Assembly (NCBI GenBank): GCA_965153455.1
Contig: OZ234494.1
Coordinates: 9,114,001-9,178,000 of the forward strand
Direction: 5' to 3'
DNA from: Sphagnum compactum
Taxonomy: Eukaryota
Length of the DNA stretch: 64,000 bases
Under the pieces are notes generated by a model. The model saw only the letters and a list, made by a program, of their open reading frames with translations, ran no database searches and had not been told where the DNA came from. Within the stretch, counting starts at the first letter, position 1. Each line of letters begins with the position of its first letter. Of the stretch, positions 9,601-49,965 are shown in pieces. Both the position numbers and the translations under genes were made by a program.

Positions 9601-12600
9601 TGGTCATATGAGTGCCTGACTGACTACAGTGATCAAAGTCTGATTTATCTTTGGCCTCTATCTTGCTCAGTCAGCTGATGTTATAGTGTCTCCACCGAAC
9701 AGATTCACAAATGGTGAGGGAAAACTTCCATCAATGCCAACAATGAAAGGTGTAATGTAAAACCACCACGACAACAGCTATCTCTATCAATCTGTCTTCA
9801 CATCAAAAGGCTTACCCAGTATATGCAAGCACAGCGACAATAGCATTAGTACCCGTTGGAAACTGATCCATGTGAAATTTGTTCCAAGCCACTGTTTGTG
9901 CGACTGGCTTTTGTGGTGTCTGCAACCAAGTGTACAAAGGCCCACATTTTGCTCATGTAGATCGTAAGGGTACTGAACACAAGTTGAAATCAAGGAAAGA
10001 GTGTGTTGCAATTGTTGTTGTGGGTCTCTAGACAAGCCTTTCAAACGGCAGATTAGAAAAAGTTGCAAAAAGTCCATCTTCTAACAGAATATGCTGGAAG
10101 ATCATAATACAGCATACATGCCCACTTTGGGACTAGATAACCAATCCTGCTCCCCAGTCAGATGCATACCTGAATGCGGTACATTTTGTTATCTGAACGA
10201 TGTGCCAGAGCTTGAGCTGGAAATCCCATTGTTTGCTTTCCCATCTGTAGTAGCTTGGGAACAGCCGAAAAAGAAAAAGAGTGTTAAAAATCTGTGGCCC
10301 AAAACCCAAAATAAAGAGAAAAAAAAGCATGCTGTGAAGGATGTGCAGGAGGAGTTTGTTGGCAGAATGCTGGAAAAGTGAAAGGCTTGACCTGACACTG
10401 GTACATGTTGCGTGGACTTTGATTATGGTCAGACCAAGGTGTGAGGCTGGCAACAACACTCAGCATGGCAGTGGCATGTGTTTCTTCATGCGTGGCTTGG
10501 GAACCTGCATTATCTCTTCCACCAGCTCCACCATCTGGGCATCTAATCTCCATGTATGCCTGCATACATGCGCCAACAACATATGTGAGTGCCGCTCCCT
10601 CGCGCACCAAGACCATAACTTTCTGTTGCTACATACAAACATATACAACTTGGCATGCGAACAAAGTCTGTCTTCACACCCAAAGCAGGCAGTTCTCCCT
10701 GGATGATTCAGGAGACACATCAAAATACAGTTTGGACATGTCCTGCTTGTTTGTAGGTTTACAACAAGGTTTGAATGGAAACTTGTACAACCTGCTCCAG
10801 TGGCCCGATGAGTTCCACTGCACCCTCATCCTGTAGCTGCTTTACAGGTCTCAGCAGACGTGATGGCGTGGTTGAGAGAAAAAGCCCTGGATACATCCCT
10901 GCTGATGTGCATGGGACATATGCTACTTCCAAGTCAGCCGGAACCTGCAAAAAAACACACGATGGACTTAAACCCTAAACCCATACTCCAGAATCTGCAA
11001 AACATGATCAAAGACAAAGGCAACCAAGCATAAATGATCCACAAAGCTAAGATAAAGAGCCTTTGTGCACCAGGGACTCCAAAAGTATACAGAACTGTCT
11101 CACCTCAGGTACTTTAGCAACTTTGAGATGCCGAATATGAGCTACCGCAGCAGGGATTGCGGAAGTCTCCATGTAGCCTACCACTCGGCCATCCAAGAGC
11201 ACTGTCAAATGAGTAGGGGGGGCCACTCGTGCCAAAGCTGGAATAGCTGGAATCATACCTAGCTGTACCAAAACTGTGGTAATTGCCTTTCGTGTCCACA
11301 GAGGATCTTTGACAACTCCTCGTTCATCTAAGTCTGTTGAAATCTCTGTGAAAACAAAAACAAAAAACAAAATACCCACACAATCAAACACAAAAAGAAC
11401 AAAAGCCATGTTTATGAGAAATTGCAGAGAAATCTCTACAACCCACACTCACTTTGAAGGTAACATGACAATTGAGAGCTGTCACATACGTAAAATCCTA
11501 TGAGATTAACTCATGAACCACCAGACTATCATCACCCTCATAAAAAATAGCAGTGACGACAAGGCTGCAATGACTACCCACTGTCTTCTGGAGCTGATGG
11601 AGCTTCATCCGTTCCTGACAGTAGGTGTAGAGATAAGTACACACCATACGCAGCACTTTATCACAACAAAACTCTAGTCTTGTTCTTCAGACATAAAACC
11701 ATGAGAATGAAAGCAAGCCCAAGACACAACTGCAACTGGCAGCATGTTGTTGCAGAGGATATAATAGACCCAAAACATGTGATGGAAAAAAACATTACAT
11801 CAGACAGTCAAGGGTTGCTTGTGGCTTCAGAAAAAGTGGGAAGGGAAGAGGAAGAGTTGCTTACGGCATACAGCAGTAAGATGGTTGAGCAGACCACAAG
11901 GTGTGCCATCAGGTGTATGAACAGGACAGAGGAAACCCCATGATCTGTATTCCATTGTGAATGATCCATTTATCTCAGATATGGAGCTCCAAAACACAGA
12001 GCAAATATGGTGAAGAAACTAGACAGCAATGATGCTGCCTTTCTTCTTCCAATAGTAGGTAGTAGTAATAGTCACAATATTATCACATTACCATCATCAT
12101 CATGAGTGCAAAAAGAAGGTGATGATCAAGGAGTGTGGAGACAGGAAAGGGGCAAATGTTTTTTTTACTCAGGGAGCAGTTTGCGGACTGTTGTGGTTCG
12201 TAGCGTTGCAAAAAAGGCACCTCTATGAACTGAGCGGAAATGTGAAATGTAACGCAAAAAGTTCAGCTTTTCTGCAACCAAAGTAAAGCCACCAGCCTGT
12301 GTTCCAGAAAAATGTCAACCAACAGATAACTTTAGGATCTATCTGTTGCCTTTTGATCAAATAGGTGTGAGGGAGATGGAACAAAAAGAGTGTGCCTAAT
12401 TCTTCACAGAACCAGCCAGACCCAGTATGTCAACCTGGAAAAACAGTTTAGGGTTTGGGGGTTAGGTTAAATCCTAAACCATTAAAAAAAAAAGTTATTA
12501 CTAAAACCCAAACTAGCAAGAAGCTTGAAGCTTTATTCAATAAAAAAACAAGCCTGCAATGGCACTGCAAGGTTTGAAAAGGCGAGAACTGCAAACTGCA

Positions 12601-18486: not shown

Positions 18487-21400
18487 ATGGCAGGTTTTGT
18501 AGTTTGGAGAAGAGGAGGAGGAGGAGCAGCAGCAGCAGCTTCTTGTGTGCGTTCCGGTGTCTCTGCTTACTCTCAAGTTCCATCAGTTGCCAGACATCTC
18601 CATGTCACGATGGCAGCATCAGCAGCAGCAGCAGGAAGAAGTGCATCTTCAATCAGCCAGCAAGAGATGGTCATAGACGGGTATGTGTGCGTGTGTGTGT
18701 TTTCCTAGAGCTGTTGGGGGCCATTGTTTCCCCACCCAACATGCATCCTAAATCCTAAACCTAAACCCTCTCTTGTAGGTGAAGAATTCTCACACCTTGA
18801 TTGCTGCTGCTGCAGCAGCAGGAGGCTCCAGAGGATCTTCCTTGGATCTCTCGCTTGTAGCCTTTCTTCTTCCTTATCACAATCTTCATTTGCCTGACTT
18901 GTGTGGGTGGTGGCATGGCAAAACAGGCAAAAAACTGCTGCAGTTCTTAATCCCAAAGAAGCTCCACCTGAAAAAGTTCTTCTTCCCCTGGACAAGATTG
19001 GTAACCAAAAGAAGAGAAGCAACAGCAGCAGCTCCAAGTTCCTGCTGCTGGGCAAGTCAGAAGAAGAGCTTCAGGATCTAGCAGCTGCACATGGCGAGGT
19101 AAAAACTCATGTTGAAACCCATCCATGTCATTCGTGCTTTACAGTCTAGTTCATACAGATTCTTCCTTGTTTGCCATCTCAGATCCACAGCGTTTTTTTT
19201 CTCTCCGCCGATACAGATCTCTGTGAACGCTGATCCAAAAGGATGCACAGCTTTTTTCTCCCTATCAAAGGTATTGTATTTCTCATTTCTCTCTCTCTAT
19301 ATTTTGTGGGTTTGTTTTCTCATGTAGCGAAAGTACCGAGGAAGGCAATTGCATCAGTTGATATACAAGAACAAAGCCAAGGAAATCCAAGACTGTGCAC
19401 AATGTATGTATTCTTCCTCTTCTTCTTCTTTGTCAATCCCACGTTTAGGAAGGAAAATGTTACAGGAGAAATGGCAAATGCTTCTTAGTTTTCAGAGCTT
19501 TTCTTGTTGCAAGTGTAAAATAGGTAGGTACAGTCCTTTTGTTTCTTCTGGAATGTGTGTGGGTTCTATGTGGCATTCTATGTGGCACATGCATGACAAA
19601 ACTGTTGGAGGTGATTTACAAGAGTTTGGAATTTTTTGGCTAGTCTTTCTTTTTCTCTCTGGATTTCTTCAGAGCTTTCTCTTTCTCTAGAAATGGGAGG
19701 TTGTGGCATTGAAGGTGTGACTGCTAAAAACTTGAGAATTTGCATTTGTTGACTTGTTGCAAAAGAAACCTCACAAAGAGATGCCATTCTTTTTCTTTCT
19801 TGCTTCTCTGGATTTGACATGGTGTTTTTTTTGGTGCTGGGGTTTTGTTTTTGTGAATGAACAAACTCTGGATATGGAAATCAGTACCCAAGCTGTTTCG
19901 TGATTCTTTAGAAACAGCAGGTTGGAGCATTGGACGCGCCCCAATTCATCATGTTGCTACTTCATCAGATGGTACTGCAAAGGTTGGTTGCTTACTATTG
20001 TCTCTTTCTCAAAACTTTCTGTACAGTAAGCAAAAGACAAGTAGAAGAACAGACCTTCTTATGCTTGTTGGTATGGGAGCTGCTGAAGTCCAGCATCACA
20101 AACCCTAAACCCATTGTCACTGCTCTTCATGATGAAGAATATGAAGTCCGGTATTGTGTACTCTAAACCCTGAACCCATTGTCACTGCTATTCATGATGA
20201 AGAACATGAAGTCCGGTATTGCATACTCTAAACCCTAATCCCTAAAACCCATTGGTCACTGTTATTTGTGATGGAGAACATGAAGTCCAGCATTCCATAC
20301 TCTAAACCCTAAACCTAAAACCCCTTGGTCACAGTTATTCCTGATGGAGAACATAAAGTCCAGTATTGCAGACTCTAAACCCTAAACCTAAACCCTGTTT
20401 CAACACTATTTGTGATGAAGAAGAAGAGGAAGGTGATAATGCATCTCTAATACTTTGTTGTTGAACTTGTTATTTTGGAGATTGATTTTGCTCTGCAATT
20501 GGGTATGGAGTTCCTCTGTCACTAAGGTGATGGGTTTTTTTCTGTCTTTGTAGATATTATTGCAATTGGTGGATGATAGGCTGGTGGAAACTGTCGGGAT
20601 TCCTGTAGAAGAGACACCAGGGGCAAATCGGTTGACTGCTTGTGTCTCATCTCAGGTTTATACATCCGAGCTTCATTTCCCCTTTTCATATTCTACTTTT
20701 TCTGTGTTCTTTTTTCTCTTGCAAGTTTGCTCTATCTATTTATAAAATAGGTATGCTGTATACATCAGCAAGCTGCATGGCTTTTCTAACCACCATTCTT
20801 CTGATTGTGTATTCCAATCTACAGGTGGGTTGTCCTTTGAAGTGCACATTTTGTGCAACAGGCAAAGGCGGGTTTTTCCGCAGCCTGAAAGCTCATGAAA
20901 TTGTTGAACAGGTAAAAAGTTCAAATCCTTCAGATCCTTCCATCTGTGAAAATCCCAAGAGAGCACATTTGATCTGTGTCACAGAAAAAAAAGTCCGAAA
21001 GTTGTTGGTTGTTTTACCTTAACTTTTGCACTGCGAAACATGTGGGGGGAACAGGTGCTTGCTATAGAAGAGATGTTTAACCATCGTGTGACAAATGTAG
21101 TATTCATGGGAATGGGAGAGCCAATGCTCAATCTTACCAATGTGCTTGCTGCTCTCCGTGTTCTGAACCAGGTTTGTTTTTCTTCCAGCTCTTTTTTGAA
21201 ATGTTGTTGAACTGTTGATTCTTCAATTTTGTTTTGCTGTTGTATTTCTTACCAGGAGTTGACTGACATTTGAACTTGTTGATCCGATGGAAAACAGGAT
21301 TTGCATATAGGTCAGCGTATGATGACAATATCTACCGTTGGAGTTCCCAATACTATTGCCCGCCTTGCAACTCATAAACTGCAGTCAACTCTGGCTATCA

Positions 21401-25139: not shown

Positions 25140-26550
25140 AGTTTTGTAAATCATTATTATAAGCTTGTCAAGATTATCAACCTCAAGATGACATCGTCAT
25201 AAGCTAGTGAATACACCTAAAATTGAAAAGATTCATTTTGTTTTGATTTGTGAACTTGGGATGTCAAGAATTTGTTTTGCCAAGAACCCCACATTTGGGA
25301 ATCTCAATTGATTACTAGCACTCCACTTCAATGGATTGAATCCATTTGCGTTTTCCACATTGAAACATAGAAAATTTAGTTTTAAGAAGACCTTCAGAAA
25401 CTTTTTATGATGATACAACTTACCTAGACAACCTTTGAAGGTGGTTGAGATAGTGCAGGAATTTAACATGTTGTAGATTGTCTTGGATTTAGAAAACCTA
25501 TAATAATGTTCAATAATGGTAGCAAAACTGGTTCATCATAATATTGCACCAACATAGTTCCTTGATCTTTGCCTATGTGATCCATGATGTAATCCATGCA
25601 TTTAAAGCATAGATCAAATATCAACGTGAACATCATATGAACTTTTTCCTAAAAGTAGTTTGCAAAACCTAGAAAAAGACACGTCATATTAGTAATTTTT
25701 TAAGCCATTTTGCTATACAAAATCTCTATCTCTTGATAAAATTCCTCACACTATAGTGGAGGAACAACAACAATTCAATGGGTATATTCTTTTTTCACCG
25801 TCCCCATGATTGCCAAAGTAACAAATAATGCATTTGATAAAACTCAGTGCCCTTTGCATTGTTTAATAAGCATTGGTGAACAACAAGGTTTAAAGTTTTA
25901 ATTACCATTCACACAATTGCCTATGTAAGACCACTGGGAATTTTAACTTGTAATGATGAACTCTATCACGTGCAGAAGATGTTGATTGCATTAACATATT
26001 CCAAGGTTTCTTGGAACAAAATGACATTTGAAATGAAATGAGTTTTCACAAGGGTTTTTAATTTCTTGTGTTTCATGCTAACCTCATTGCAAGCCTTCTA
26101 CCACTCAATTTTGCCCTTCCTAGACTTCTTGGTTTAAGTGATTGTTTTTAAAGTGCAACTTGGGCGTCTTTCAAACTAACTTCCTTTGTGCATTCAGTAA
26201 TTTTAATCTTGTTGGTAACATATTGACATGCTTTTGACATAACATGACCAAAAACAAAAGTTATCAAATAGTTGAAGTAACTATAATGGTTCACAAGACA
26301 CAATAGAAGTGAAGGCAATGTAGATTAACTCCTTCATCTATAACTTAGGCTATAACTTTTTTTGGTAGGTTGAACTTTACCAACATAACCTTCATTTGTT
26401 TTGCAAGAGTTGCACTAAAAGATTAGGTGTTTCAAACAATCCAACTATTATATAACTAAGAACCAAGTTTTGTTTAATGAAATTGATAATCAAAACGAAG
26501 GTGTTATCTAGACGTCAAAAGTTGTTGTCACAATTGCACACTGACTAATG
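25140..26550 (-). mobile_element. Decayed hAT-family transposase remnant
   Basis: Minus strand NPLKW...RFPNVGFLAKQILDIPSSQIKTK followed by GVFTSL..C.L..NLDKL resembles the hAT C-terminal dimerisation domain; upstream KTIT*TKKSRKGKIEW near 26100-26150; many stops. Confidence 0.7.
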
Positions 26551-29939: not shown

Positions 29940-30182
29940 TTCATTACTAGTTGTACCAACCAGGTAGGTAGTAAAACCAGCCATTACCTCCTAGGTAAAA
30001 ACTAATTACTTATTTACGGGTCACCTACTTTCCTACCTATCTAGATCTATATATAGGACCTATGACTTCTTACAGGATGAGTTACCAAGGTGAAACCGGA
30101 TATTAACTCAGTTGAGGTTCAATCCACAACGGAGTCATAATGGGCATGCAGTGAATGGTGCATTGGTCGGTGCACTATGGCC
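29940..30182 (-). mobile_element. Partial inverted copy of the same MITE family
   Basis: TTAACTCAGTTGAGGTTCAATCCACAAC..ATGGTGCATTGG..GGCC is the reverse complement of the 51380-51470 segment. Confidence 0.65.
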
Positions 30183-31079
30183 TCCAAGGTCAGGGCACCT
30201 TTAGACAACACCCATGGGACGATTCTTTTTATTAAAAAAATTTAATTGTTTTTCTTCACCCCCAGGATGCATCCTCACTTCACTCCCCCTAATTTCATCA
30301 CCCTTCATGTGATCTCCCATGTAGTTTTAAGACAAATAAAAATCCAATCAGTGCTGTGGGAGGGTGCTGGCTAACATTTCAAGACATTTGGGGCATAGCT
30401 TGGAAAATTAGATCCTAGCATCTAAACCTTAAACCCTAAACCATTTCCGGTGTGGTCTGGTATAGATCGAGCATAGATCTATAAGGTTGATGATGATTAT
30501 AGGTTCGTATGAACATTTCAAAACATTTTCACCTTAGTCTAGAATAGATATGTATTGCTAGATCTAGGATTGATGACGATCTAGTATCATAATGACCTTG
30601 CTGGGAGTTCACAGTGTATTAGGAGGGTGCCTTAAATTCGCATAAAGATCCCCTCTTGACAGAAGAGGTCATCTTACTACCATTCTGGGCAGGCTCTTAC
30701 AGTTTAGTAAGCGCCCACGTGGGAAGGCCCTTGGAAGGGAGCGTTACCAGAGTACGGCCCTGCCCTTGACTCATGCGGCCTCAAGCTGGCGGGGCCTTTT
30801 GCTGGCAATGCCCGGGAACAATGCCCCAGTCAGCTGGCCTTGCCTATCAAATAACATTTCAGACTGATCCCCGTCTACGGATTCTAGTCTCTCGGCCGCG
30901 ATGCCATATTACGTCTACACTGAATGCTAGGAAACTCCGGCTAGTACGATTGACTTTGGTGCCCGCTCACATAACACCCAAATCCAAAAACAGTGATCAG
31001 TGCCAGCTACGCGGGCAACGCGTCTGATGCAGTCCATCATTTTCTACAGCATCCAGAGCACCAGCCGGAGCAGCTCTTC

Positions 31080-31081
<2 letters not shown>

Positions 31082-31113
<32 letters not shown>

Positions 31114-31142
31114 TATTATCATTATGTTGTTGTTGTTGTTGT
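31082..31142. repeat. (ATT)n/(GTT)n compound microsatellite
   Basis: TTATTATTA... followed by GTTGTTGTT... Confidence 0.9.
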
Positions 31143-31623
31143 AGCAGCGCCGACTATCTATCACAGCTAGAAAACTTTATATTATTTCATTGACTTTGAT
31201 GAGTTTGTAGCTTGTACCCAACAGCTGCTGCAGATTTTCCTTTCTTGGATTTGTCTTCTTTTTTTTTGCATCAAGACTCAGCTAATATTGAACTAGAGCA
31301 TAAGGATTCCACTTGCAACTCGTGTGGATCGATCGATATATAGCTTGATTGAATCGGCGGCAGCAACTGGATGGGGGTGCTATATGCTATATACATATAA
31401 TATTTGGAGAAGGATCTCAGCAGCAGGGACTGCAAGTGCGGAATCTACTGGTGTAGTAGTGAGGATCCGATTAAACCGATCAAAGTGGAGAAGGAAATCA
31501 GATAAGCTGCGAGCTTGCAGGAGATTGATGAATCACGTAACTTGCTATAACTTCAGTTTACCAATACGAGGTAGCTGAAAGTCTAGCTCATTTGCAGCTG
31601 CTGTCGACAGTTGTGGGAGGAAG

Positions 31624-34600
31624 ATGCATTTCGAGAAACTGCAAGTGTATGTAGAGGGTGCACTTGGTATAAAAAATCCCAACATTAGTCCAGGTGCCGC
31701 CTCCTCTCTCTCTCTCTCTCTCAAGATTTGTGTCTTTCATTCTTTCTTTCATTCTTTCTTTCTGTGACTAGTATTTCTTCCGCTGTTTTTCAATGTGTAC
31801 CAAAATAGGATGCAATGCAAATACTCCTTTCAGAACAAATTGTCGGCGAGAAAAAAACCTATTGTGCCCACACTCCTCCTCCTGCTGTCAAGGGCTTTGA
31901 TCAGTTGGTAGTCGAAGGCTTCTAGGTAGTTTTTCCCCACACCACCTCAAACACTAGTGCATCTCTGTAGAATCATCGACCATGGGTGGATGGGTGCCGC
32001 TGCTTCTGATGCAGGAGGTGCAGACAAGGCTGCAGGAACTTTTTACTGTGTGTTGACATGTGGTGCACTAGAGTGCAAAACTCTAACCTCCCAAGGTACC
32101 AGTCTTTAATCAACACCAGATTTCTGATCTTCTCTTCTGCACTTCTTAATTTCTTTTCTCAAGGCTAGATTTTTGCTGCCCCAGGTGCTGAGCACTGCAA
32201 CTAAAGTAATATATATATATATATTAAGTCTAGTAGTCTATCATCAATGCCTAAGCAAATTATTATTAACAAAGATTTTGTTTTAATGTTCCCAAAGCAA
32301 AACAAAATAGGGGGAAATTTTTTTAAGATGTTTCGCACAAGATGAAAAGGATCTGGTCCTTCTTACTGTAGTTTTTTATTTATTTTATATTTTGATCTTC
32401 ATAAAAAATAATAAATCAAAAGCTGTTAATTATTGGAGAAAGACTATATTTTAAACCAGTATGACTTTAACTTTTATCATAATCATTCATAAATGTGTTT
32501 TTACATAATAAAAAAAGACAAAATTTTATAAAAATAATTAAATGACGCAGTGACAAAATTTTGGTACACTTAAAAATTAATTGGACCCAATAAATTAAAT
32601 TAAATTATTTTGATTTTTTTCCAAAGAGGGAAACATGATCTCTAGTTTACTATGGTATTACATTTTGTGGCCTATTTTTTTTCCATGTCGAAGCAAATTA
32701 AACCTTTTTTGGGCATTTTGACAATTTAAAGTTGAATTAACAAAACATAGCAAAAGCTCTCCAAGGGAATTGTGGGAACAATATTTTAATTCAATGTTTT
32801 ATTGTAATTTTCCACATTGTGAAAGGGTTTATGGTACAGTTTTGGTGATTGATAAAATATGTAAAATTATTTCAGTATGAAATAAACATCTAAATAACTA
32901 TTTTTTCATTTGACTTTTTGTATTTTATATAAATTTTCAATCTATTATTTTCTAAATGTTTATGGATTTTATGTCCAAAGTAATAAACAAATACATAATT
33001 ATTTTGAATTGATGTCATGAGTTTTGTGAAGACGGAAATGAAGTCATATATGTGTGTGTATGTGTGTGTGTGACTGGTCTTAGACTTTGTGAGTCCATGT
33101 TTATTCACCACACAATGGTGATGATTGTCTTACATTGTGTGCTAGTGATATTCATAAGGTTAATACAAGTTCCTGCATATTTATTCTCCATATGTTGAGT
33201 GTTTTTTAATCAAAAAAAAACTCCTCAAGTAAGTCCACTGGCAAGGACCCCCAACATTAATTGGTATTGAAAAGTAAGTGTCCTAAGTTGGCTATAGCAT
33301 TTTTCTCCTACAAGTGGTGGCCTAGGAACAGGGTTTGTTTTTTTTCTGTTTTGTGATGTAGCAATCATTCATAAGATGATATAGTCAGATTTGGTTACAG
33401 ATTACATATGCAAGTAGAAAAAAAAACAGAATCCTTCTATATTCTTAGCTACCTGCTGAAACTTATCATAAAAATATGGTGATTCGAATTTATCTTTTTC
33501 CAAAATCTGGCAAATTTGGGCCCTTTTTTTTATACTGGAAAATCCTTGGAACATGTCGAAATAATATTTTTCAGGTCAAAATTTGTCGAAATTTTGCCAA
33601 AATAAATACACACTGCCTAGGAAGTGCCTAGATCTAGATGTGCCTAATTTAATCCAAATTTTCTTCTTCTTTTTTCATTTTCTGAAAAAAAAAGAAAATA
33701 AGCTGCGAAGTTGTGAAATTTTGCCACAAATTTTTTGAATAGGTTTGATTTTGTTGAAACAGATTGAATGGAAACTACCTCAATTTTTTTCTTTGCAATC
33801 CCATAGATTTGAGTTTTTGGAGTGGATGTTCTACATCCAAATAGTAATCAGTGGTGTGCTTAATAAAGGAAATGTTTGGAGTGCAGGAAGCCCTAAGGTC
33901 ATTTATCCTTTATGAAGGCTTACCTATACTAAACAAGAGAGATACTTGCAGCCTCAATGATGAAAGTATCAAGAAATTCAAGGTTCTTTTTTTATTAGCT
34001 ATGTCTCTTGAGTGCAAGCCAGCATCATCACTAAGCATTCCCCTCTAAAAACTTACAATAAAGACTCAGGATGCAAAACATTTCTGTAATTAATTGCCTG
34101 AGATTTTTGGTAGAGATTTTTTTTAATTTTTGGAGTTTTTGGGAGACTTTGATTAAGTTAGAGCTAGTGTGGTGGCTATTTGTGTCTGCTATTTGTGATG
34201 AAGGTTATGCCAGTCTGACACTCATATGGTTTTTGACTGCACTCATTCTTCTTGCCCATTAGCCTAGTTTTGATTAATTCTGGAGTTGGTTATAGGAAGG
34301 AACTGTTTGGTTCCAAGTAGTACATGAAATTGGGAATTTGAATGATGGAAGAAGTGAATATAATATTGAGTTGGAATTGACAATCTGAATGATGGACTAA
34401 TTGTTGGAAATATAAATAATTAATATGGCATTGAGAATCTGAATGATGGAAGTTGTGAATCTAGAATGAATATGGAATTGAGAATCTGGAGGAAATTTTC
34501 TGATCAGTTTCCAGGAACTTTGCAGCTATGCTGCTGAAGAGATCAGCATGCTGATATTCTAGGTTTGGGATTAGCTCGTAGCTTTAAGTAAAGAGATATA

Positions 34601-37600
34601 TGCCAAGCAGGTTTGGAATATAGTTAGATCTCCAACTTGCATCAGACCTGGTCATAAGATTGAATTGGACAAACTGATCCCAAGCTCTTATAATGCCCAC
34701 TTGATGCAAACTCACACGAGGGACCCATGATAGCTAACAGTTTAAGGATTGATCAGCTCTTTTAACCATATGCAGTATTGCAGTTACAGACATTGGAGAG
34801 ATTGACATGATACCAGCTCATAGGGCTTTGAACACTAATTTTGTTATGCAGATGACGAGGACTTCAATCCTTGCTGGAACACAACCTTCACATTCAAAGT
34901 TGACAGAAAGTCCCCTGGAAAGCTTGGTGTGAATATCTTCTGCCAGAATATGCTCAATGAAGCTGCAGACGATTTTTTGGTGGCCTACACTAGGTAAATT
35001 TATAATATAAATCTTCACTGCAACCAGAAATTTAATTACATCCTGTGTAGCCACAGATCAGCAGCTGCATTGATCAGCTTCAAGGTATGAGATTTCTATA
35101 CATAAAATTAGATTGCTCTAATGCTCAGTTCCAAAGAAAGGAATTCATCCTGGCAGTCATAATTTTCTTAATACACAAGTTCTTCAATATTGAAACTTGG
35201 CAGATTCTAGTCTTCAAGCCAGGTTCTCTGTTAGTGCTTGCTAGGGTTTCAAATTCTTTAAGCTGGAGTATCAAAAATGTGTTGCAACATTTAGGGTTTA
35301 GGGTTTATTAGTCCTGTTTCACCAAACACACATGAGGATTTGGAACCGGCCTAGGGTTTATTGAATTGATGTAGCTAGTTGTTTTGTGTTTTGGGGCTTT
35401 GTGGTCACTGCAGTTTATCATTCAAGAGATTGTTCCATGACAGCCCTGTTGTGCCAATTCAAGGTTTTGATGTGCTGCATCCATCTAGCAATGATGGAGC
35501 TGCAGCTGGCCAGATCAAAATGGGTTTCAAAATCTTCAGCAGAACCATGGGTAGTGATCATCTGCATCCGCAGGTGCGAGTCTTTCATAAGTCCTTGAAT
35601 CAAATTAGTGTTTATAATTCAAAGACCAGCAAGGCATAACTAATAATAAGCTGCTGCAATTCTTCTTCTCTGATCTAGATTCTTCTCTGTTCGAAGTACA
35701 GGTCAGATCAGATCCGATCAACAGATCAGATCCGATCCCTCTTCTGCAGCATTGATGCATTTTATTTTATTTTTGTGTTGTACATAATTGGTGGCATATG
35801 TACTTTGATTCAGAAGCCAGCTCCACTGCAGATTCAGGATTCAGATGAACAATTATACTTCCCAGGGGATTCAAGTGTGATCAAAGCTGTTGCTCGTGCA
35901 TCTTCAGCTGGTCCAAATCATCACGAATATCATGGGGACCAATCTAGTAGAGTAACATCGTGTTCTACTGGTCCTATTTCGAGGCGTCCAGCTTCCAGTG
36001 GACAACATTATGACATTCCGCGTGCCTCAAGAAATTCTCAAGCACCCTCAAGGCCGAAACAGTTTCACCCAGACTTGCAAGCAGCAGCTCCTCCACAAGC
36101 TGATGATCAGCTTACTGCAAGAAAATCACAAGCAAGCTCGGTGCCATATGGTCGACTTCATGAAGCTGATCGTAATTGTCCTCCAAACCTCGATCATCTA
36201 CAATACGGATCTACCAATTTCGCTTATAGCTCTGATGAATCCTGCAAGAAATCCGAATCTGCTTCTTATATATCTGCAGCACGTTCCAGCAGCAGCAAAT
36301 CAAAAGTTAGAAACGCATACAAGCAAGAACAAGATCAGGATCTCAATACCGACGAGCAGCAGCTGGAGGAACAGATCTGTGGACGAGAGGAGCAGGAGGA
36401 GAATGCAGATCAGGTCGAGGAGTACAAGAGGGAAGTTAAGAGTTATATTTATATTGCAGGTGACGCTTCTTCTAGGGTTGAGAGCAGCTGCAGCGGCGCC
36501 AGCCTCAAGCTGCTGGTTCCACAGGCAGGAAGAAAGACCAGATCTAGAGCTCAACATGGAGGAGAGTATCTGCAAGATCCTTCTGCCCAAGCTGGTACTT
36601 GTCCTCCCAAGAACTACAAGGTTCCTCCTCATGATGACTATGAACTTCCGTCGCCACAATCAGCTTCTAATTTGCAGGCGGCAGAATTAGTTTCTTCCGA
36701 CCAGCTGCAAGAAGCTGAAGATTTCAGCTACCAATATCATCAGGCCTCGTGCAGCCACTCTGTCTGGAAGAAAAAAGACATCCACAGGTGGTTGGAAAAC
36801 TCTGCTAGTATCATTGATGATCATTCACCACCTCCTGGTTATACTCATGCGAGCAGCACATCAGCAGAACACATAGCATCTCATCCAGCTACTCAAGCTC
36901 TGCATCAGCTTCATGAGAGACCCCAACCTGGTCGCAAACTAGCGCCTCCCGGAGTACCTGTACTGCGAAGACCAGCTGTAGCACCCGTCCATCAACAAGC
37001 TCATAACCAAATTCATGCTAGACATGAGTTCAATCCACAGTCTCCAAACCAACGGGGTGCTCCTGTGCTTGATCATGCTAATAGATCAGAAGACTTAGCA
37101 TCACATCCAGCTACTCGAGTTCATCATCATGATCGTGGGCCGAGACATGTTCCTCACAACCGTAGTCCTCTTCAGAACGCTCCTCGTCCTCGACCAGGGC
37201 CTGAACAAACTAGACCTGTGCAGGTCGCATGCAGTCTGCCAACGATGTCGAGGCAGCAGCCTCAATCCAAATATGTGCAACAACACCCTGCGGCTTCATA
37301 TTCTGATCATTACAGACAATATGATGCGCAGCTAAAGATTGCAGCTCATGGGTCGTCAAGGCAACAAGCTCTCGTTGTTGGGATACCCGTGCAGCAGGCG
37401 CAAGCTGTGATGATGATGCAGGAAGATCTGCAACAACGACCTCAGCAGCTGCTGCCATCGCAGAAACTGAAGAACGGATTAAATTCGTTCGTGAAAGGAG
37501 CAACAAAAGTAGGCAAAGTTTCATTGCCTTACGTTGCTCAAGCAGCTCGCGTTGCAACGATGTTGGCACTTGCAGCTACCGGCGTACCACCCAACCTGCT

Positions 37601-38615
37601 TACGGGATCAGCTGCAGGTCCCGGATCGAATCAACAAGTTTATACCAACAACGTCGTCCCTGCAGGAGGTGGCCCAGGCCGCAGCCGTGCAGTCGCCGCT
37701 ACTCATGGTCGAGGCAATAGACTCCAATATGATCCAAGACTAGCTGCAGGAAACTACACTGGAGCTGGAGATCATACTGCAGCTATAACGTATTATTACG
37801 ATGGGAGCGGGTCAGATCAGACGTATATGAGCAGTGGAGCTGGTGGTGCAGCTGGCCGGGACAGCTACAGCTCTGGAACTGCTGCTGCAGCTGGCCGGGA
37901 TAGCTACAGCTCTGGAGTTGCTGCAGCAGGTAGCAGCTACTATGGGGCAGGTACTGGTACTGATCAGATCAAATGGACGACATTTGCAACAGGAGGAGGT
38001 TCAGAAGAGTACTATGTCCAAGCTGCAGGCGATGTCGATCATGATCAAGCTGTCCTCTATGAAGGGGCAGCAGCAGCTGGAGAATACTACGACATGAACC
38101 ACATTAATGCAGCTCAAGACTATTGCAATGCAGGTGCGGGTACTGGTGTGATCATGTCTGCAGGCAATTATGGATCAATCCAGGATTACTCCTACCACTG
38201 CAACAACATGGGTGCAGCAGGATCAGACAGGTGCGACATTAATGGAGTTCAAGGAGGGTATAACTCTAGTGCAGCTGGAGCTCAAGTTCTAGAGTACAGT
38301 GAAGATACGCACTACACTACTTATACAGATGTAGAGTATACTGCTGGTAGAGGCGTGGATCAGTACACTGCTCAAGGTGTAGAACACATGCAGGGTGTAG
38401 GTGTTGAATACAGTACAGGTGTGGAGTACAATGAAGGTGTAGAATACTATGCAAGTGGTATGGACTACACTGAAGGTGTGGAGTACAGTGAAGGTGTAGA
38501 ATACTATGCAAGTGGTGTGGACTACACTGAAGGTGTGGAATACAGTGAAGCTGGTGTGGAGTACAGTGAAGATGTAGAATACAGTGCAGCTACTGTGGAG
38601 TGCAGTCAACAATGA
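31624..38615 (+). CDS. N-terminal C2-domain protein with a ~930-aa low-complexity tail (5 exons, ~1084 aa)
   Basis: Exons 31624-31693, ~32015-32095, 34852-34993, 35414-35573 and 35814-38615 have GT-AG ends and matching phases (1,1,2,0). N-terminus: MHFEKLQVYVEGALGIKNPNISPGGADKAAGTFYCVLTCGALECKTLTSQDDEDFNPCWNTTFTFKVDRKSPGKLGVNIFCQNMLNEAADDFLVAYTSLSFKRLF...GQIKMGFKIF, a C2 pattern (YCVL, KT, NPxWNxxFxF, DD). Exon 2 has three possible in-frame acceptors. Confidence 0.82.
34330..34490. repeat. Degenerate ~52-55-bp tandem repeat in intron 2 of the C2 gene
   Basis: ATTGAGAATCTGAATGATGGA core recurs 3-4 times. Confidence 0.7.
38385..38605 (+). repeat. Coding tandem repeat encoding (E/S)GV(E/D)Y(S/T/Y) units
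   Basis: GAAGGTGT(A/G)GA(A/G)TAC... units, including a duplicated 57-bp higher-order unit EGVEYYASG(M/V)DYTEGVEYS. Confidence 0.92.
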
Positions 38616-41600
38616 GGATTGCTTCAAGAATCACTCCAAGAAAATGCAGGCATTATCGTTAGTTATTGAGTGCTTGAGGATGAGAGACATGTGTTATTTT
38701 TTAATAATACATTGACTTTAAAGTAGCATTTTCAAGATTAGGCATCAACGCAAACATCTAGTCAAAAGGGACACTAAAAAAAAGTCCATCAAAATAGCTA
38801 AGGTTAAGGCTCACTTTAGATGGGTCCAAGGTTCAAATTCCTAAGAACCAATTTGGACTCATTTGAAACAAATTGGGCCATCTTCAAAACATTCACCTCA
38901 TTCTTGTAAATTTTTTGTTCAACTGGTTTTCTAGTGAACTAAAATAGTAAAGACCAAAAGCATAGTCTCGTTTCCCTTGTGTTATTATCACTAGTTGAAG
39001 GCCTATGGTGCATAGTAAACAAACTTCTAGGTTGAAATTTTATATTAATTCATTATCAATCATGGTCTTTAGATAGAAAATAGATTTATAGATTTTTTCT
39101 AACTCCAATAATGTAAACAATGTTGCTTTATTTCTCCATTAATAAAGCATTCTTCCAAATTTCCTTGCCCTTTCATAACATTGAATGTCCCTTCAACAAT
39201 TTTAACTTGCATGCATATTTAGGTTTTGTATTCCCATCTAGAAGTTTTGAATTGATTGTTACATATTTTGTTGCTTGAAAATAAAAGGTGAAAGCACACT
39301 ACGGTGACCTTTCCCTTTGGGGTGTCATATTGTACTACTTTCCAAAGATGTGCATGTTTGAATGTATCCCATCTCAAACTTTCGAAAGATTTTGACAATA
39401 TTTTTGCATATTATGTTAGAATATAACATAGACAAGAGTTTTAAAAATAAAGTATTTCATTTCATTGTAGAAAGTGAGAGATTGGAATATATTTGTGAAA
39501 ACAAATGTAGTGTACCTGTGTATTCAAAAAAACAAATATATTTCAAATATAATTTAAATGGTTTTTAATCTTTATGAAAGTCAAAGGTATATTGAACCAT
39601 GTCATTTCACATAATATGAACCATGTTTGGATACCATGTGACTAATTTGAAAATTTTCATCTCAAAAGATGAGTTTTTTCAGCAAAGATACAATAAATGT
39701 GTGGTAAATTGAAATTTTATAAGTAATCACATCCGCATACAAAATGACAAGCATAGCTAGATGGGCCATTTCTTTAATTTCATTCAAATTGATTATTTTA
39801 ATGACTAATGAAACCCTCAAGTCAATGCAATCAAAATGAAATTGTAACCCTATTATACCAATGTATACTATAAATATACTCATGAATCCTTCAATATAGA
39901 TAATGAAATTTATTTTTATTTTTTGAATAATATTACATAACATTAATTCTGTAAAATAATTATTTTAGGGTCCTAAAACCAAAATTGATTCTCAAAATTA
40001 AACGTACCATGCTTTTGGAACAATTAAGTATTGTATGTACTATAATACTAGACCCAAAAATGCTCCAAAGGGAGTCACCCTACAATATGCTTTCACCTTA
40101 TAATATCGAAGAAATGTTTTCATTTTCTAAATCCATGGTTGCTAATGTTACTTCAAAGGTTTTTATTTTATTTTCAAATTCAAACACATCATTATCAACT
40201 TCTATTTCATTTTCTTCAAACACAATGTTTGCATGGTTCTTCTTTACTAAGGGATAGATGTGAAAATCACTAACATGTGAAATTGTATTCTATCTATTCA
40301 AAAGGCAATCCCTAACCCAATGACCTTTCTTACCACAACATCAATTTTGTTTTCGACAAACAATTTAATTATAGACATTCCTCTAGTTCTCTATCTCTTG
40401 AGCATATCTACACTCTAGGATCAAAAATAACACTTGAAATACTTGATGAAGTACCAGCAAGTTCTAGTTCAACCAAATCACAAAGCTCCCCCCTTTCTAA
40501 TATGTTTGGATTCCAAATTTTCACATTGTATAGATTGAATTATCCTTCCAAGTTACTGACAAGTAGTTATTTAAGCCTAACATCTTTTTAAAATCAAGAT
40601 AATGAAAAAAATTCACAAAATAAAATAGAAGTTACAACACCTAATTAATGATGGTTTGTGATTGAGACATTATCCAATTTGATAGAATGTCAATACTTTG
40701 CATAGCTAACTATATAACTCTTGAATCCTTCAATGCTAATTCTATAGATTTGAAAATAAAACATTCTAAAAGTTCAACCTCACTTTGATACCATCAAAGC
40801 ACTTTCAATGAATGAATTATTAAGCCCCAATAAATAGCATATTTATGCATGTCACATGTTTAAGAAATTGTTAATGTTTAAGTTATCACTAAATGTTTAA
40901 ATTAAACAATATATTTTTGTCAAATGCTACAATGTAAGGGTGGCATTGATTTGTGACATAAGATAAATTGAGGTAAGTTTTATTTTTAAAACTTGATTAA
41001 GGAGTAGCACTAGAACTACTTACCACTAATAAATTATTGTCAAAAATATTTTTTAATGGAACGTCATCTTTAAAAAAAGTGCCAAAAAAATTGTTGCTTG
41101 ATATGGACAAAAGTTTTGGGCATATTGGCTATAGTCAAATGACAATTAAAAAGACACCAATCAAAGTGGACGAGTTCAAATCAACTTATCCAAAAATGCA
41201 CCACTTTGGTCAAAAGTTACCAATCCAAAAAATTGCATTTTTTTGTAATGAATCAAAAACCAGCTCCCACTCAATGTTCATTGACCATTCCCATTTAAGT
41301 GTCAATAGGGTGTAATCACATTGTAAAGAACCAATCATTACAAGGTCCAAGTGTTTTTTTAAAACTAGGCCTTATCTTATTTGAAACATGATTTCCATGT
41401 TTTGGCTAAGGCTCATAAGAAGATGATATAAAATGTTAACTTCAAAAGCTTAATTCACATGTGTTTCAATGAATTTTCAAATAACATGTAATTAGAAGTT
41501 TATAGAATGATTATTTTTCACATAAATTAAATGTGTATATTTCAACAAAAGTAAACATAATTTTCTTCAACATCAATATTAATGCAATAAAGCATATTCA

Positions 41601-46113: not shown

Positions 46114-49100
46114 TCATGTGGGAACAAGAGCATCATCTTGTGGCAGAGTAAGAGCCTTGACAACAGCTAAAGCCAGCGGAAGGGAAAGGACTACACACAA
46201 GGAGCCGCCCAGTGTAATCTCAGCATACCAGCACAATTTCCTCCACATTTTCTCCAAAGTGTGAATCATTGCAGCATTCCCTTGGCCCCAGTTGAACTTT
46301 TGAACAGGAATCTCTGCTGTGCTCTCTATTTCATCCTCCAGATAGTCTCCCATGCCTGTTGCAAGACTCCCATGACTGCAGGTATAATCATGTTGACCAA
46401 ACCTTGGCAGTCCCTCATTTGGATTCAACTTTGTCATGTCTTGAATGGTCCTGTTTCCCTCCTCTATTTGGCAATCAGACACAGGCTCTGTTCCAAAAGC
46501 AGCTCTATTACAGCAGCTCAAACTGCATGGCTGGCCCATAACCGCATTTCTTCCACAATTACCTTCTGAGTTTATGGAGTTGGAGAGAAGTAACTCCATT
46601 CCAGAGTCAGCACCCATACTCAGGCTACACTCCTTGCCAGAAACCTGCTTACTGTCAACTGATTTAATTCTTCTGTGATGGCAGGTTGATGCCATTTGGA
46701 GCTTGCGGGGACTAATTATCTCTTTAGAATTAGCAGGTCCATGAGGAAAGTCAGAAGATTCTTCACCAATGCCTTCATGTCTTTCCTCAACATCCTCTTG
46801 GCTCCTTCCATCTTTTCGTACCGACTCTTCTGACCTCAAATTGTCATGCACACTCCACCCAGCATCACTTGAGGTCTCCAAATCCATATCAGCAACATCT
46901 ATGCTTGTTACACCTTGCTCTGCTAACCCAATTTCATCCATAGATAAGGTCAGCTCATGATCTTGACTGCTCCTCTTGGAAAAAGAGCTTGAGATGTCTG
47001 ATTGTAGTGACTGCACAAGTCTTCGTGGTGAAATGCATGGCAGGAAGTCCTTTGCACTGATGAGCATTCTTGACTTCTGCAGGTCCCAGGAACCACGTCA
47101 TTGGTACTTTTTTCATAATTATGTTCTAGCATATTGCAAGCAACAGCAGAGACACTAGAACATTAAGAGTTTGAAGAGGAATGTAGTTTGACATCTTAAA
47201 GGCTCTCACCTGAGTAGATCCAGTGCTATCATCCTCTTCATTTTGATGTGCCAATAAGTTGAAGTGATGAGTGAGCAGATTCACCCGGCCCCTGGAGTAC
47301 CCTCCTGGATTCTCAACACTACTGCTTATAGCATAAGTATCTGAACTTATGCTCCTGACATTTGTGACTCTATTGACAGTTTTCTCTGTTGTTTCAATTT
47401 CACATCCACTTGTATGATGAAAACCAGCCCTGATGCTGTGATTCTTACTCTGGCTGCCCTCCTCAAGTCCAAATCCATGTTGATAGTGTCCATCACTGTG
47501 GCGAACGATGTGGGATCCAAAACTTTCACTGCTTCGGGTTGGACCCCCTCCATACTTGCTTTGAACAATAGATTCTGCACTCCGGTTTCCATCACTATTC
47601 AACCTCATCCTCCAAAGCACATCCTCAATCTCAATTCTGTTACTTTCAGTACTGCTACTGTTAAGATCTGCCTCCTTTGGGACTTGGGTTGTGCAGGATC
47701 TTGATGCCAACCTGTAATTTTCTGCCTCATTAAGACTCAAGACTTGTGTATCAAATGAGCTTATCTTCCTCAGAACTCTATCCATTGCATCCTGTGAATC
47801 ATGGGGGCTTTGGTTTGCATGGTGAGCTTGTTTATCTTCCTGTTGGGTTGCAGCTGCTATTTGTTTAGATCCAACTGGTGGGGTGAGGGTCTCATGAATA
47901 GGAAACTCTGTTAAAGGACTGTACTTGCCCACTCGGACACTGCCACTTGGAACTCCTGCTTCATCCTTCAGGGAAAGTGTCTCTTTAACAGCTGGGCCTC
48001 CTGATGTAATCTTATCCTTGCTATATGCTGCACACATTAAGACAGCAAGATTGTAATCACAACTCCAAACAGTGCAATCTGAGTCATGCTTGATCAGACC
48101 TGGAAGATGAGCAAGCAGCAGAGGGAAGAATGCATGCTTAGGGACATAGAACAAAAGACAGCACATAAATGTGGGCTGCAGAGGCCTCCACCTATCTGCA
48201 TACTAGGTTGAAAATTCAAGCAATATGTTCGAAGTTCACAGGGGAAGACAGGGACTCACAGGCAGCAGCAATAGAACCACATTCATCAGAGGCAGGGCTT
48301 GAGGGCAATAAAGTAGGGCTGCTAGATCCATTCGACTGGGTTTGAGACTTTGCTGGAAACAGAGGTGTTCTTCTTGCTCTCTTGATAGGACTCAGTGTTG
48401 GAGAAGACACCCGCACAACATCCATAGAATCAGAAGTTGCAGTGGAGGCTGGTGAAAATGAGAAATGGTGCGACTCTTGCGAAATTGGACTGGCTGTAAA
48501 CTTCAAAACTGGAGGGACTGGACTCTCTTCAGAATGCCATTCATCATTTGAACCTGCCACCACACTCCTAGTTACTGGAACCTCTGCTGCCCCTTCATCA
48601 ACAGTCTCCTTACTCCAATCGCACGATATCAACATTCTGGCTCTTTGCAGGGCTGCACCTATTGCAGCCCGCACATGAATCATTTTGTCCAGCCGACAGC
48701 TCTCCAAAGTCTGCATTATGTGGAAAGTGATAGTAAGTCACTGCTATGTGTAAAAGATATAGAGAAGGTGGCTTTATGTGTGCATTGCGGGGGAGGCCTG
48801 CAACTGGGAAAATGTATTCTTTTTACCTGCACTGTATGAGGAAGCTCCAAAGCCAGTGTCTCTTTATCCAGTATGGCAAGCACTGCCTGCAGCAAATGCA
48901 CTGCAAATTTTCGATGCTGCCAAGAATCAGGGAATCCCTTCAAGATTTCTTCCCCCTCCTTGAGCAAGCTTGCCCCATAAATGCTGAGAGTGACAGGGTT
49001 AATTGTGGCCAACAAGCGCACTAGCTGCATGTGGGCTACAGTGCGGTTGGATTTCTCACTCAACGCTGCTGTAGCACGCTGACATACTTCGTGTATCGAT

Positions 49101-49965
49101 TCCTCTGACGCATATTTCCATTTCTCACAATCCACTAGTGCGTGCAGGCATGTGGCCGCCCCAGCTGCCACAGGTTCCAACTTGGCTGCAGACGAAGGAA
49201 GATAACGGGCCACTGCTGAGGAACTCTCTCTCTCTCTCTTTTTCTTCTTCTCAAGTCCTACTGGAAGAAATGCTGCAGAAGAAGAAGAAGCTTAAACATT
49301 TTGTTTTGTTTGCTATTATGATGAAGGCTTGGCTTACCTGCAATTGCGTCAGTGAGAGGCTGAGAGAGCATCCTTAGTATCTGCTCAGCTTCTTCAACCG
49401 GAGTGGATGCATCTATGGTGAAGCAAGCCAACGCAGCCACGACTTTGGAGCACGTCAGGTGCAGCTGCGGTGAGCTTCCACTGGCAGACAGAGCCCGCAT
49501 GAGGGAGTTCATTACACGCGGAATGTGAGGGACGACGAGTTTTCCATGCACCTGAGCGACGTCTTGTACGAGAGAAACGGCGTAGGGGCGTGGACCTCCT
49601 GGTTCTCGAGTCTCTAATACCTGTGCAAACGAGGCGGCGGCGGGGGTTGAGGAAAGCAGGCAAGCAAGGGAAAAAGAAAACATAATTCCATCTCCATCAA
49701 TGCTCTCAAGAAACACAATTCACAAAATGCACCAAGAACGAACAGGGAACAGACAGCGAAAAACACACGACAGAGATGAAGAAAAGAAGAAGAAGATGAT
49801 GATGATAAAGAAGCATTATCGTACCTGGTTAAGAAATCGTGGCATGGAGACACAATCAAGCTGATCCACAAAAGCTTTGAGCGACTGCATTGCGATACGC
49901 CTTCTCTCTCCGTCCTTGTCCAACTCCGCCAAGTCCTGCTTCACAACCGGACTCAGATACCTCAT
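46114..49965 (-). CDS. SINE1: SINE1-like plant KASH protein (N-terminal ARM repeats, C-terminal TM + LVPT), 6 exons, ~1004 aa
   Basis: Exons 49965-49825, 49620-49338, 49185-48827, 48710-48260, 48027-47210, 47076-46114, all phases consistent. N-terminus MRYLSPVVKQDLAELDKD..RRIAMQSLKAFVDQLD..MPRFLNQVLET, VHG..VPHI, CSKVV, GAATCLHALVDCEKWKYAS and CRLDKMIHVR match the SINE1/SINE2 ARM region as I recall it. It ends with hydrophobic ITLGGSLCVVLSLPLALAVV then QDDALVPT-stop. Confidence 0.9.

Follow-up and report, generated by a model that had tools for sequence, protein, structure and literature searches.

The question raised by this locus is what kind of protein, if any, is encoded by a long open reading frame (ORF) that looks like an orphan. 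The frame lies in a 64,000-nucleotide (nt) stretch of contig OZ234494.1 of the moss Sphagnum compactum (hereafter the window). The first-pass annotation, made from the letters of the DNA, had proposed that four small upstream exons are spliced to a seemingly domainless 946-residue ORF, supplying it with an N-terminal C2 domain and giving a protein of about 1084 residues. The analysis described here finds a five-exon nuclear moss gene that is expressed and whose product is best classed as a C2-domain protein, assigned to no particular subgroup, with a new, very long orphan tail. The coordinates of its parts are collected in Table 1.

All four introns of the five-exon model have GT..AG borders on the plus strand. 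The coding parts of the small exons (70 + 81 + 142 + 160 nt) add up to 453 nt, or 151 codons, so that exon 5 is entered in phase 0, and the spliced frame runs for 1084 residues with a terminal stop only. The proposed in-phase joining of the four small exons to the big ORF and the overall protein length are thus both borne out by the borders, phases and frame present in the DNA. The “946-residue ORF” itself is a mechanical one that starts from a GTG at 35775; the corresponding stop-to-stop frame comprises 978 codons (35679-38612). At the other end, the first in-frame ATG to follow the in-frame stop at 31576 is that at 31624. Farther upstream, ATGs at 31371, 31384, and 31528 open three short ORFs (9, 64, and 16 codons, respectively), all of which close before 31624.

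Transcription of the gene has been followed chiefly in X24, a run of raw polyA RNA reads carrying the same species label, of which 448 align on 30000-39500. Three of the four junctions are demonstrated there at the exact bases: 32095/34852 by nine reads with seven starts, 34993/35414 by three reads with three starts, and 35573/35814 by 13 reads with five starts. The first two of these are also each present in one contig of X1 and one of X2, moss or plant metatranscriptome runs that are possibly two entries of a single data set; run X18 lacks all three. The splicing expected from the earlier proposal is thereby confirmed for these three joints, but the remaining one, 31693/32015, is absent among the 15 of 35 X24 joints listed, a point that is taken up below. 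In almost all X24 reads the first mate lies on the minus strand and the depth in the opposite orientation is about zero across the gene, which fits a single plus-strand mRNA with no antisense transcript. Coverage spans from ~31320 to ~39190. At the 5′ side, the depth is 0 in the bin 30951-31267, 1 at 31321-31370, 3 at 31448-31485, and 10 at 31568; at the 3′ side, it declines from 4.0 in 38559-38875 to 2.69 in 38876-39192 and 0 in 39193-39500. The small exons and the big ORF form one spliced, polyadenylated, plus-strand transcript.

Six genomic loci carrying the tail have been found on metagenome contigs, with 87-90% protein identity, and one of them, L005, holds all five exons. Three clades can be distinguished: the window, the group L001/L002/L005, and the pair L003/L004. 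Nucleotide identity to these relatives is 96-98% in exons and introns alike, so the level of conservation alone says little. The gaps behave differently in the two compartments. In exons 1-4 there are no gap runs and the splice sites are conserved, exon 4 being free of indels in four relatives, and in exon 5 all 11 gap runs are multiples of three. In the introns, by contrast, 12 of 64 gap runs have lengths divisible by three; intron 2 shows 51 runs against the relatives, mostly of other lengths, and intron 1 compared with L005 shows seven, with lengths of 1, 1, 2, 4, 6, 8, and 8.

The N-terminal part was searched for known families exon by exon, using the unspliced translations against Pfam, the PDB, and the ESM Atlas. 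Exon 3, which codes for 46 residues or about a third of a C2 domain, matches the Pfam C2 profile PF00168 with an E-value of 0.0014 at profile positions 45-81 of 104, and the same exon of two relatives gives 19.0 bits (E 0.0017) and 19.9 bits (E 0.0009). PF00168 is the sole family reported for the set of four small exons at E ≤ 10; the NT-C2 profile of the PMI1/EHBP1 type (PF10358) is matched by none of the four exon pieces at that threshold. Against PDB sequences, C2 domains make up four of the five matches of exon 3 at E ≤ 10, the top three being C2 domains of cPLA2 (E 0.12-0.16) and the fourth that of NEDD4L. In the alignment, NPCWNTTFTF at spliced residues 56-65 pairs with NPVWNETFEF of the cPLA2 C2 domain. 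C2 domains are defined by an N-P-x-W-N signature that continues into an alternating aromatic strand, midway through a domain of ~130 residues, and this motif is found here. Among ESM Atlas clusters, 25 of the 30 retrieved with exon 3 are C2, with a top score of 0.96, which is weak evidence because the recognition value of 2241 is under the mark of 2300. Since the Pfam, PDB, and ESM Atlas signals all come from one stretch of 46 residues, they do not count as independent evidence.

The placement of the match is also informative. It sits at protein residues ~54-92 of a proposed domain that starts at residue 5, with ~53 residues ahead of it (for 44 profile positions) and ~43 after it, up to GQIKMGFKIF; this spacing makes the position right for a complete C2 domain. 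As judged by profile and motif matching, a C2 signature is present in exon 3 at the place expected of a full-length domain. Calcium-dependent C2 domains typically carry acidic calcium-binding residues in loops 1 and 3, although membership of the family does not depend on them. In the alignment with the cPLA2 segment MDANY, the Asp, which we take to be a calcium ligand, is replaced by Cys, while the Asn is retained; by eye, most classical acidic ligands seem to be replaced. The C2 module is therefore probably calcium-independent, in so far as the residues at these positions can tell.

Several observations weigh against a complete, working C2 domain. The exon 3 score in the window, 19.3 bits, is below the PF00168 gathering score of 22 bits, and exons 1, 2, and 4 taken singly give no C2 match in Pfam, the PDB, or the ESM Atlas. 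The C2 exons show an omega (the ratio of nonsynonymous to synonymous change) of 0.5-0.7, computed from 13-18 changes and not significantly below 1 (p 0.12). The “complete C2 pattern” of the first-pass annotation has accordingly survived in part: all of its motifs are present by eye and exon 3 goes beyond chance, also in the Pfam comparison, but that score stays under the cut-off and the other three exons add no signal of their own.

These same observations are what an alternative reading draws upon, in which the N-terminus would be a degenerate C2 remnant that has lost lipid binding, possibly serving as a protein-binding module, with the protein working mainly via its disordered tail. The apparent replacement of most calcium-ligand aspartates, judged by eye from consensus positions, may be added in its favor. 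On the other side, the four small exons lack indels, and every relative covering them has kept both their frame and their splice sites. Moreover, family searches commonly miss pieces of 23-53 residues of any divergent domain, and many calcium-independent C2 domains still bind membranes. Degeneration thus appears unlikely, and a C2 fold (an eight-stranded beta-sandwich) at the N-terminus is quite probable from the sequence evidence assembled above.

Other candidates and trials at the N-terminus led nowhere. Exon 4 gave a best ESM Atlas score of 0.80, which is the chance level, and a weak PDB match to an unrelated cyclophilin (E 0.052); exons 1 and 2 retrieved 3 and 24 PDB matches, respectively, the latter to steroid receptors, all unrelated and none of them C2. 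A word-indexed search among longer proteins with exon 3 returned two candidates, none at E ≤ 10. The four exon peptides modelled as separate chains scored 0.15 (mark 0.34), a value that carries no evidential weight.

A back-translated NPxWNExFxF motif was also found at four loci in viral contigs, one of which is a true C2 protein. This locus, L007 (901-930), lies on a giant-virus metagenome contig and has a 161-residue ORF coding for a single C2 protein (PF00168, 45.7 bits), with two related clusters only. A home-made C2 profile built from two proteins related to it proved powerless, ranking the real moss sequence third of 2001 against shuffles and matching by the motif only.

The remainder of the protein, residues 152-1084, is encoded by a single exon. 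This tail consists of Ala (12%), Ser (11%), Gly (9%), Gln (8%), Tyr (6%), and Pro (6%), with Ile, Leu, Val, Phe, Met, and Trp together making up 15%. Its middle is basic and rich in His and Pro, and its last 124 residues (961-1084) carry a net charge of −24 and 18 Tyr. The C-terminal repeats have periods of 18 (10.2 copies), 39, and 57 nt according to Tandem Repeats Finder and contain 10 V-[ED]-Y hexads; the number of GVEYSE-type repeats varies among the relatives. No transmembrane segment is predicted in the tail, the maximal 19-residue hydropathy being 1.28, below what a membrane span needs, and no Pfam family reaches its cut-off. The sole match, to Lysostaphin_N, scores 21-51 bits in the window and five relatives (28.8 in the window) against a cut-off of 60; the match falls on the GVEYSE repeats and is a repeat artefact. 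AlphaFold2 gives the tail a mean predicted local distance difference test (pLDDT) value of 27.4, with values below 50 in 930 of the 933 residues, although the alignment behind it consists of eight near-identical rows, which makes low pLDDT weaker evidence of disorder than usual and counts against leaning on it.

The tail has few relatives as well. HMMER searching of 1,835,955,588 representative proteins found only three matches to it, all at ≥ 85% identity. A word-indexed search retrieved five protein clusters with 86-91% identity. The small exons escape ORF callers, which is why all five clusters begin with “MYLIQK”, inside the last bases of intron 4. The tail is, by model prediction, intrinsically disordered and, by these searches, restricted to close relatives, in agreement with the earlier description of it as domainless, disordered, and probably lineage-specific.

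Exon 5 has accumulated at least 204 substitution events among these sequences, with no stop codon created against 8.3 expected under neutrality (P 2.5e-4). The in-frame indels and the lack of stops across three clades show that selection keeps the tail frame open. At the same time, the amino-acid sequence changes rapidly. Pairwise Nei-Gojobori omega of the tail is 1.44-1.59, and 159 nonsynonymous events stand against 29 synonymous ones, where 136.4 nonsynonymous out of 188 would be expected given the transition bias (one-sided p 7e-5). A Goldman-Yang codon model over 912 gap-free codons gives an omega of 1.80 (twice the log-likelihood difference from omega = 1 being 10.2, p 0.0014), and over 741 codons away from gaps and terminal repeats an omega of 1.70 (p 0.017); a coarse kappa grid was used for the omega = 1 fits, and this weakens the case to some extent. 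Synonymous divergence is ~0.03 and resembles the intron divergence of 2-4%, which means that the excess lies in the replacements and not in a depressed synonymous rate. The sole region below 1 in pairwise comparison is alignment codons 600-800, which contain the helix-prone segment (omega 0.56-0.75 vs. 1.2-2.9 elsewhere). An antisense or overlapping gene as the cause of omega above 1 is ruled out by a first-mate-on-plus depth of about zero over the tail. By these estimates, amino-acid change in the tail is at or above the neutral rate while the frame is strictly preserved, and this is the most unusual property of the gene, one that had escaped the first-pass annotation.

An omega at or above 1, the lack of relatives below 85% identity, and a tail without fold or family are what one would also see if the tail were no working part of the protein but came from a transcribed ORF of recent origin that evolves in effect neutrally, as a functionless extension drifting in one lineage. 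Drift, however, would not keep 933 codons open with no stops where 8.3 are expected, nor would it confine indels to multiples of three in exon 5 across three separate clades while the introns show no such restriction. Moreover, omega is significantly above 1 and not equal to it, and the gene is expressed and correctly spliced. A neutral origin of the pattern is thus very improbable. It should be kept in mind, to the detriment of the selection argument, that the relatives number only six and are known from metagenome contigs, which may represent chimeras or paralogs.

The 5′ end is the part of the gene model that is least directly covered, and here too some points speak against it. As stated above, the first junction does not appear among the listed X24 joints, leaving three of four demonstrated. 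Further in-frame acceptors exist at 31958, 32018, and 32024. The bin containing exon 2 has a mean depth of 5.76 over 317 nt, which would be ~22-fold if confined to the 81 nt of the exon, somewhat above the neighboring exons, and this leaves room for some use of an upstream acceptor or for intron retention. The acceptor region at 32013-32018 (cag|GAG|G) is a tandem one, in which the use of the second AG (32018) removes one Gly codon and keeps the frame. One may therefore ask whether the 5′ end is misassigned, with exon 1 untranslated or alternatively spliced, translation beginning no earlier than an in-frame ATG that lies within the open frame at 31990 (27 nt ahead of 32017), and the first C2 strand missing from the protein.

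The available data point the other way. Exon 1 is transcribed at a depth of 14-17 on the strand of the gene and at the depth of the other exons, and the remainder of its bin adds almost nothing in X24. The RNA contig in both X1 and X2 stops at 31694, which is what a splice branch point would lead one to expect. The exon 1 ATG comes first in the mRNA after the short upstream ORFs. L005, the sole relative reaching that far, has kept both splice sites, the donor of exon 1 as well as the acceptor at 32015, and its exon 1 differs at one position in 70 nt with no indel. The stretch 31958-32014 behaves as non-coding, since L005 carries an 8-nt insertion inside it and use of the upstream acceptor 31958 would lose the frame there. 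A misassigned 5′ end is accordingly highly unlikely. A masked CT repeat (31695-31769), whose length differs in L005, starts two bases past the exon 1 donor.

A (TTA)15 microsatellite is located at 31081-31125, just 5′ of the transcript.

Taken together, the data somewhat favor a reading in which the gene encodes a cytosolic protein of 1084 residues that combines a divergent C2 anchor with a fast-evolving, disordered scaffold tail. Residues 1 to ~135 would form a divergent single C2 domain distributed over four small exons. By analogy with known proteins, this module would probably localise the protein, docking without calcium on a membrane or a partner, and the long tail, multivalent and adaptable, would probably serve as a scaffold or as a surface for interactions at the site set by the C2 domain. 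The blocks of the tail, namely the basic His/Pro-rich middle, one short helix-prone segment, and the acidic Tyr-rich C-terminal repeat array, would be maintained in length and composition, with the exact sequence free, or pushed, to change. That the C2 fold is complete, needs no calcium, and binds membranes, and that the tail serves as a scaffold, is inferred here, for localisation and scaffolding from the way in which C2 domains and the tails of SRC2 and PMI1 act.

A more ambitious proposal is that an ancient C2 localisation module has gained a genus-level orphan exon of 933 disordered residues, which is kept open and driven to change (omega ~1.8) so as to form a membrane-tethered, diversifying interaction surface. 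This is a tentative suggestion, and we do not regard it as probable. If true, the tail could take part in an arms race on behalf of the moss, in the manner of SRC2 tails bound by pathogen effectors, or, alternatively, be a rapidly tunable condensate scaffold, and the birth and selection of a new long disordered region would have a clean natural example in this gene. The link to a C2 module gives the orphan ORF, whose C2 part is missed by ORF callers, a testable cellular address. In uniting strict frame preservation, no detectable fold or distant relatives, and faster-than-neutral change, the tail offers a compact case for studying the origin of disordered regions in early land plants.

Within the introns and flanks of the gene, several further features were observed. 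In intron 2, the segment 33804-34120 shows an RNA depth of 24.6 in X24 and ~320 in X1 and X2, far over that of the gene itself. The reads there differ from the window at fixed sites (20 of 20 at 33833, 33841, 33846, and 33848) and run into unrelated sequence on either side of short segments at ~33833-33863 and ~33986-34028; neither Pfam nor Rfam gives a match for 33804-34120. The segment has the appearance of a gene fragment or a short repeat with expressed copies elsewhere. Another part of intron 2, 32900-33677, ~777 bp in the window, is missing from L001 and L005, while L004 aligns from 33051; judging by the alignments, it is probably a lineage-specific intronic insertion or deletion. Run X18 shows very high depth in bins near 35290-35307 and 30423-30608, with many loose ends and odd joints linking them, a pattern pointing to a dispersed repeat present both in intron 3 and ahead of the gene. 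Rfam has no match over 30500-39500. The window as a whole is ordinary plant nuclear DNA, and the neighboring genes and remnants recognised in it close Table 1.

Table 1. Parts of the five-exon gene, segments of its tail, and neighboring features in the 64,000-nt window.
Feature	Coordinates	Strand	Remarks
5′ untranslated region (UTR), approximate start	31320..31623	+	X24 read depth
Exon 1, coding part	31624..31693	+	70 nt, 23 codons + 1 nt; proposed first C2 strand KLQVYVEGALGIK; donor CAG|gt
Intron 1	31694..32014	+	321 nt; GT..AG; CT-rich microsatellite at start
Exon 2	32015..32095	+	81 nt; FYCVLTCG...CKT; acceptor tgcag|G, donor AAG|gt
Intron 2	32096..34851	+	2756 nt; spliced out in 9 X24 reads and one contig each of X1 and X2
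Exon 3	34852..34993	+	142 nt; NPCWNTTFTF...LGVNIF...DDFLVA; recognisable C2 core; both junctions in reads
Intron 3	34994..35413	+	420 nt; GT..AG; spliced out in 3 X24 reads and a 310-nt contig in X1 and X2
Exon 4	35414..35573	+	160 nt; proposed last C2 strands GQIKMGFKIF and linker; both junctions in reads
Intron 4	35574..35813	+	240 nt; GT..AG; spliced out in 13 X24 reads, 5 starts
Exon 5, coding part	35814..38615	+	933-residue low-complexity tail and stop; open frame; RNA depth 3-8 throughout, one strand
3′ UTR, approximate end	38616..39190	+	X24 read depth
Helix-prone, more hydrophobic, slower-evolving stretch	37305..37577	+	tail residues 498-588; 4 of 6 model helices, all of low confidence; hydropathy peak 1.28
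C-terminal tandem repeats, acidic Tyr-rich GVEYSE-type units	38395..38606	+	Tandem Repeats Finder
Rpb2-type RNA polymerase subunit gene	6618-10628	-	exon-sized ORFs, Rpb2 domains 6 and 7, E down to 3e-35
Radical SAM exon	20636-21019	+	E 2.6e-5
hAT transposase dimerisation region, transposon remnant	25236-25532	-	E 1.3e-4
TORTIFOLIA1-like gene, N-terminal region	48719-49719	-	E 5e-6

Among literature titles, none concerns a moss C2 protein with a ~900-residue orphan tail, and titles are no proof of absence. The proteins that the moss product resembles most in layout are those of the SRC2 type (soybean SRC2, pepper CaSRC2-1, VvSrc2, and ZmSRC2L1-15), which likewise begin with a single C2 domain at the very N-terminus and continue as a non-globular tail. 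The presence of a single N-terminal C2 without any other folded domain, a feature of SRC2/BAP/ERG-type proteins in general, is found in the moss protein as well, but their length is not. The grapevine VvSrc2 has 291 residues, of which residues 1-112 form a C2 domain that confers membrane localisation, and the piece 113-248 is bound by a fungal effector (PMC12684713), while the maize ZmSRC2L1-15 family ranges from 212 to 402 residues (PMC12989361), in both cases far short of 1084. The moss tail further differs in its 933 residues, with no predicted membrane span and no relatives outside close kin.

Small C2 proteins such as OsERG1, OsSMCP1, BAP1/BAP2, and CAR are described as calcium-dependent lipid binders with little beyond the domain (PMC8875736, PMC12684713). 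They are like the moss protein in having a single C2 of the PF00168 type, a cytosolic location, and no further domain; they differ from it in that the moss protein has a 933-residue tail and that its classical acidic ligands seem mostly replaced, as judged by eye.

The nearest precedent is provided by PMI1 and the plant NT-C2 proteins, in which a C2-type module near the N-terminus is combined with a long disordered region. PMI1 has 843 residues, with NT-C2 at 133-288 and long disordered regions needed for function (bioRxiv 10.64898/2025.12.30.697064). It differs in belonging to the NT-C2 branch and in having a conserved folded C-terminal domain, whereas moss exon 3 matches PF00168 only and the model of the moss protein has no folded C-terminus. 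Thus, the moss protein is not a new kind of system, since plant C2 modules with disordered regions are already known from SRC2 and PMI1.

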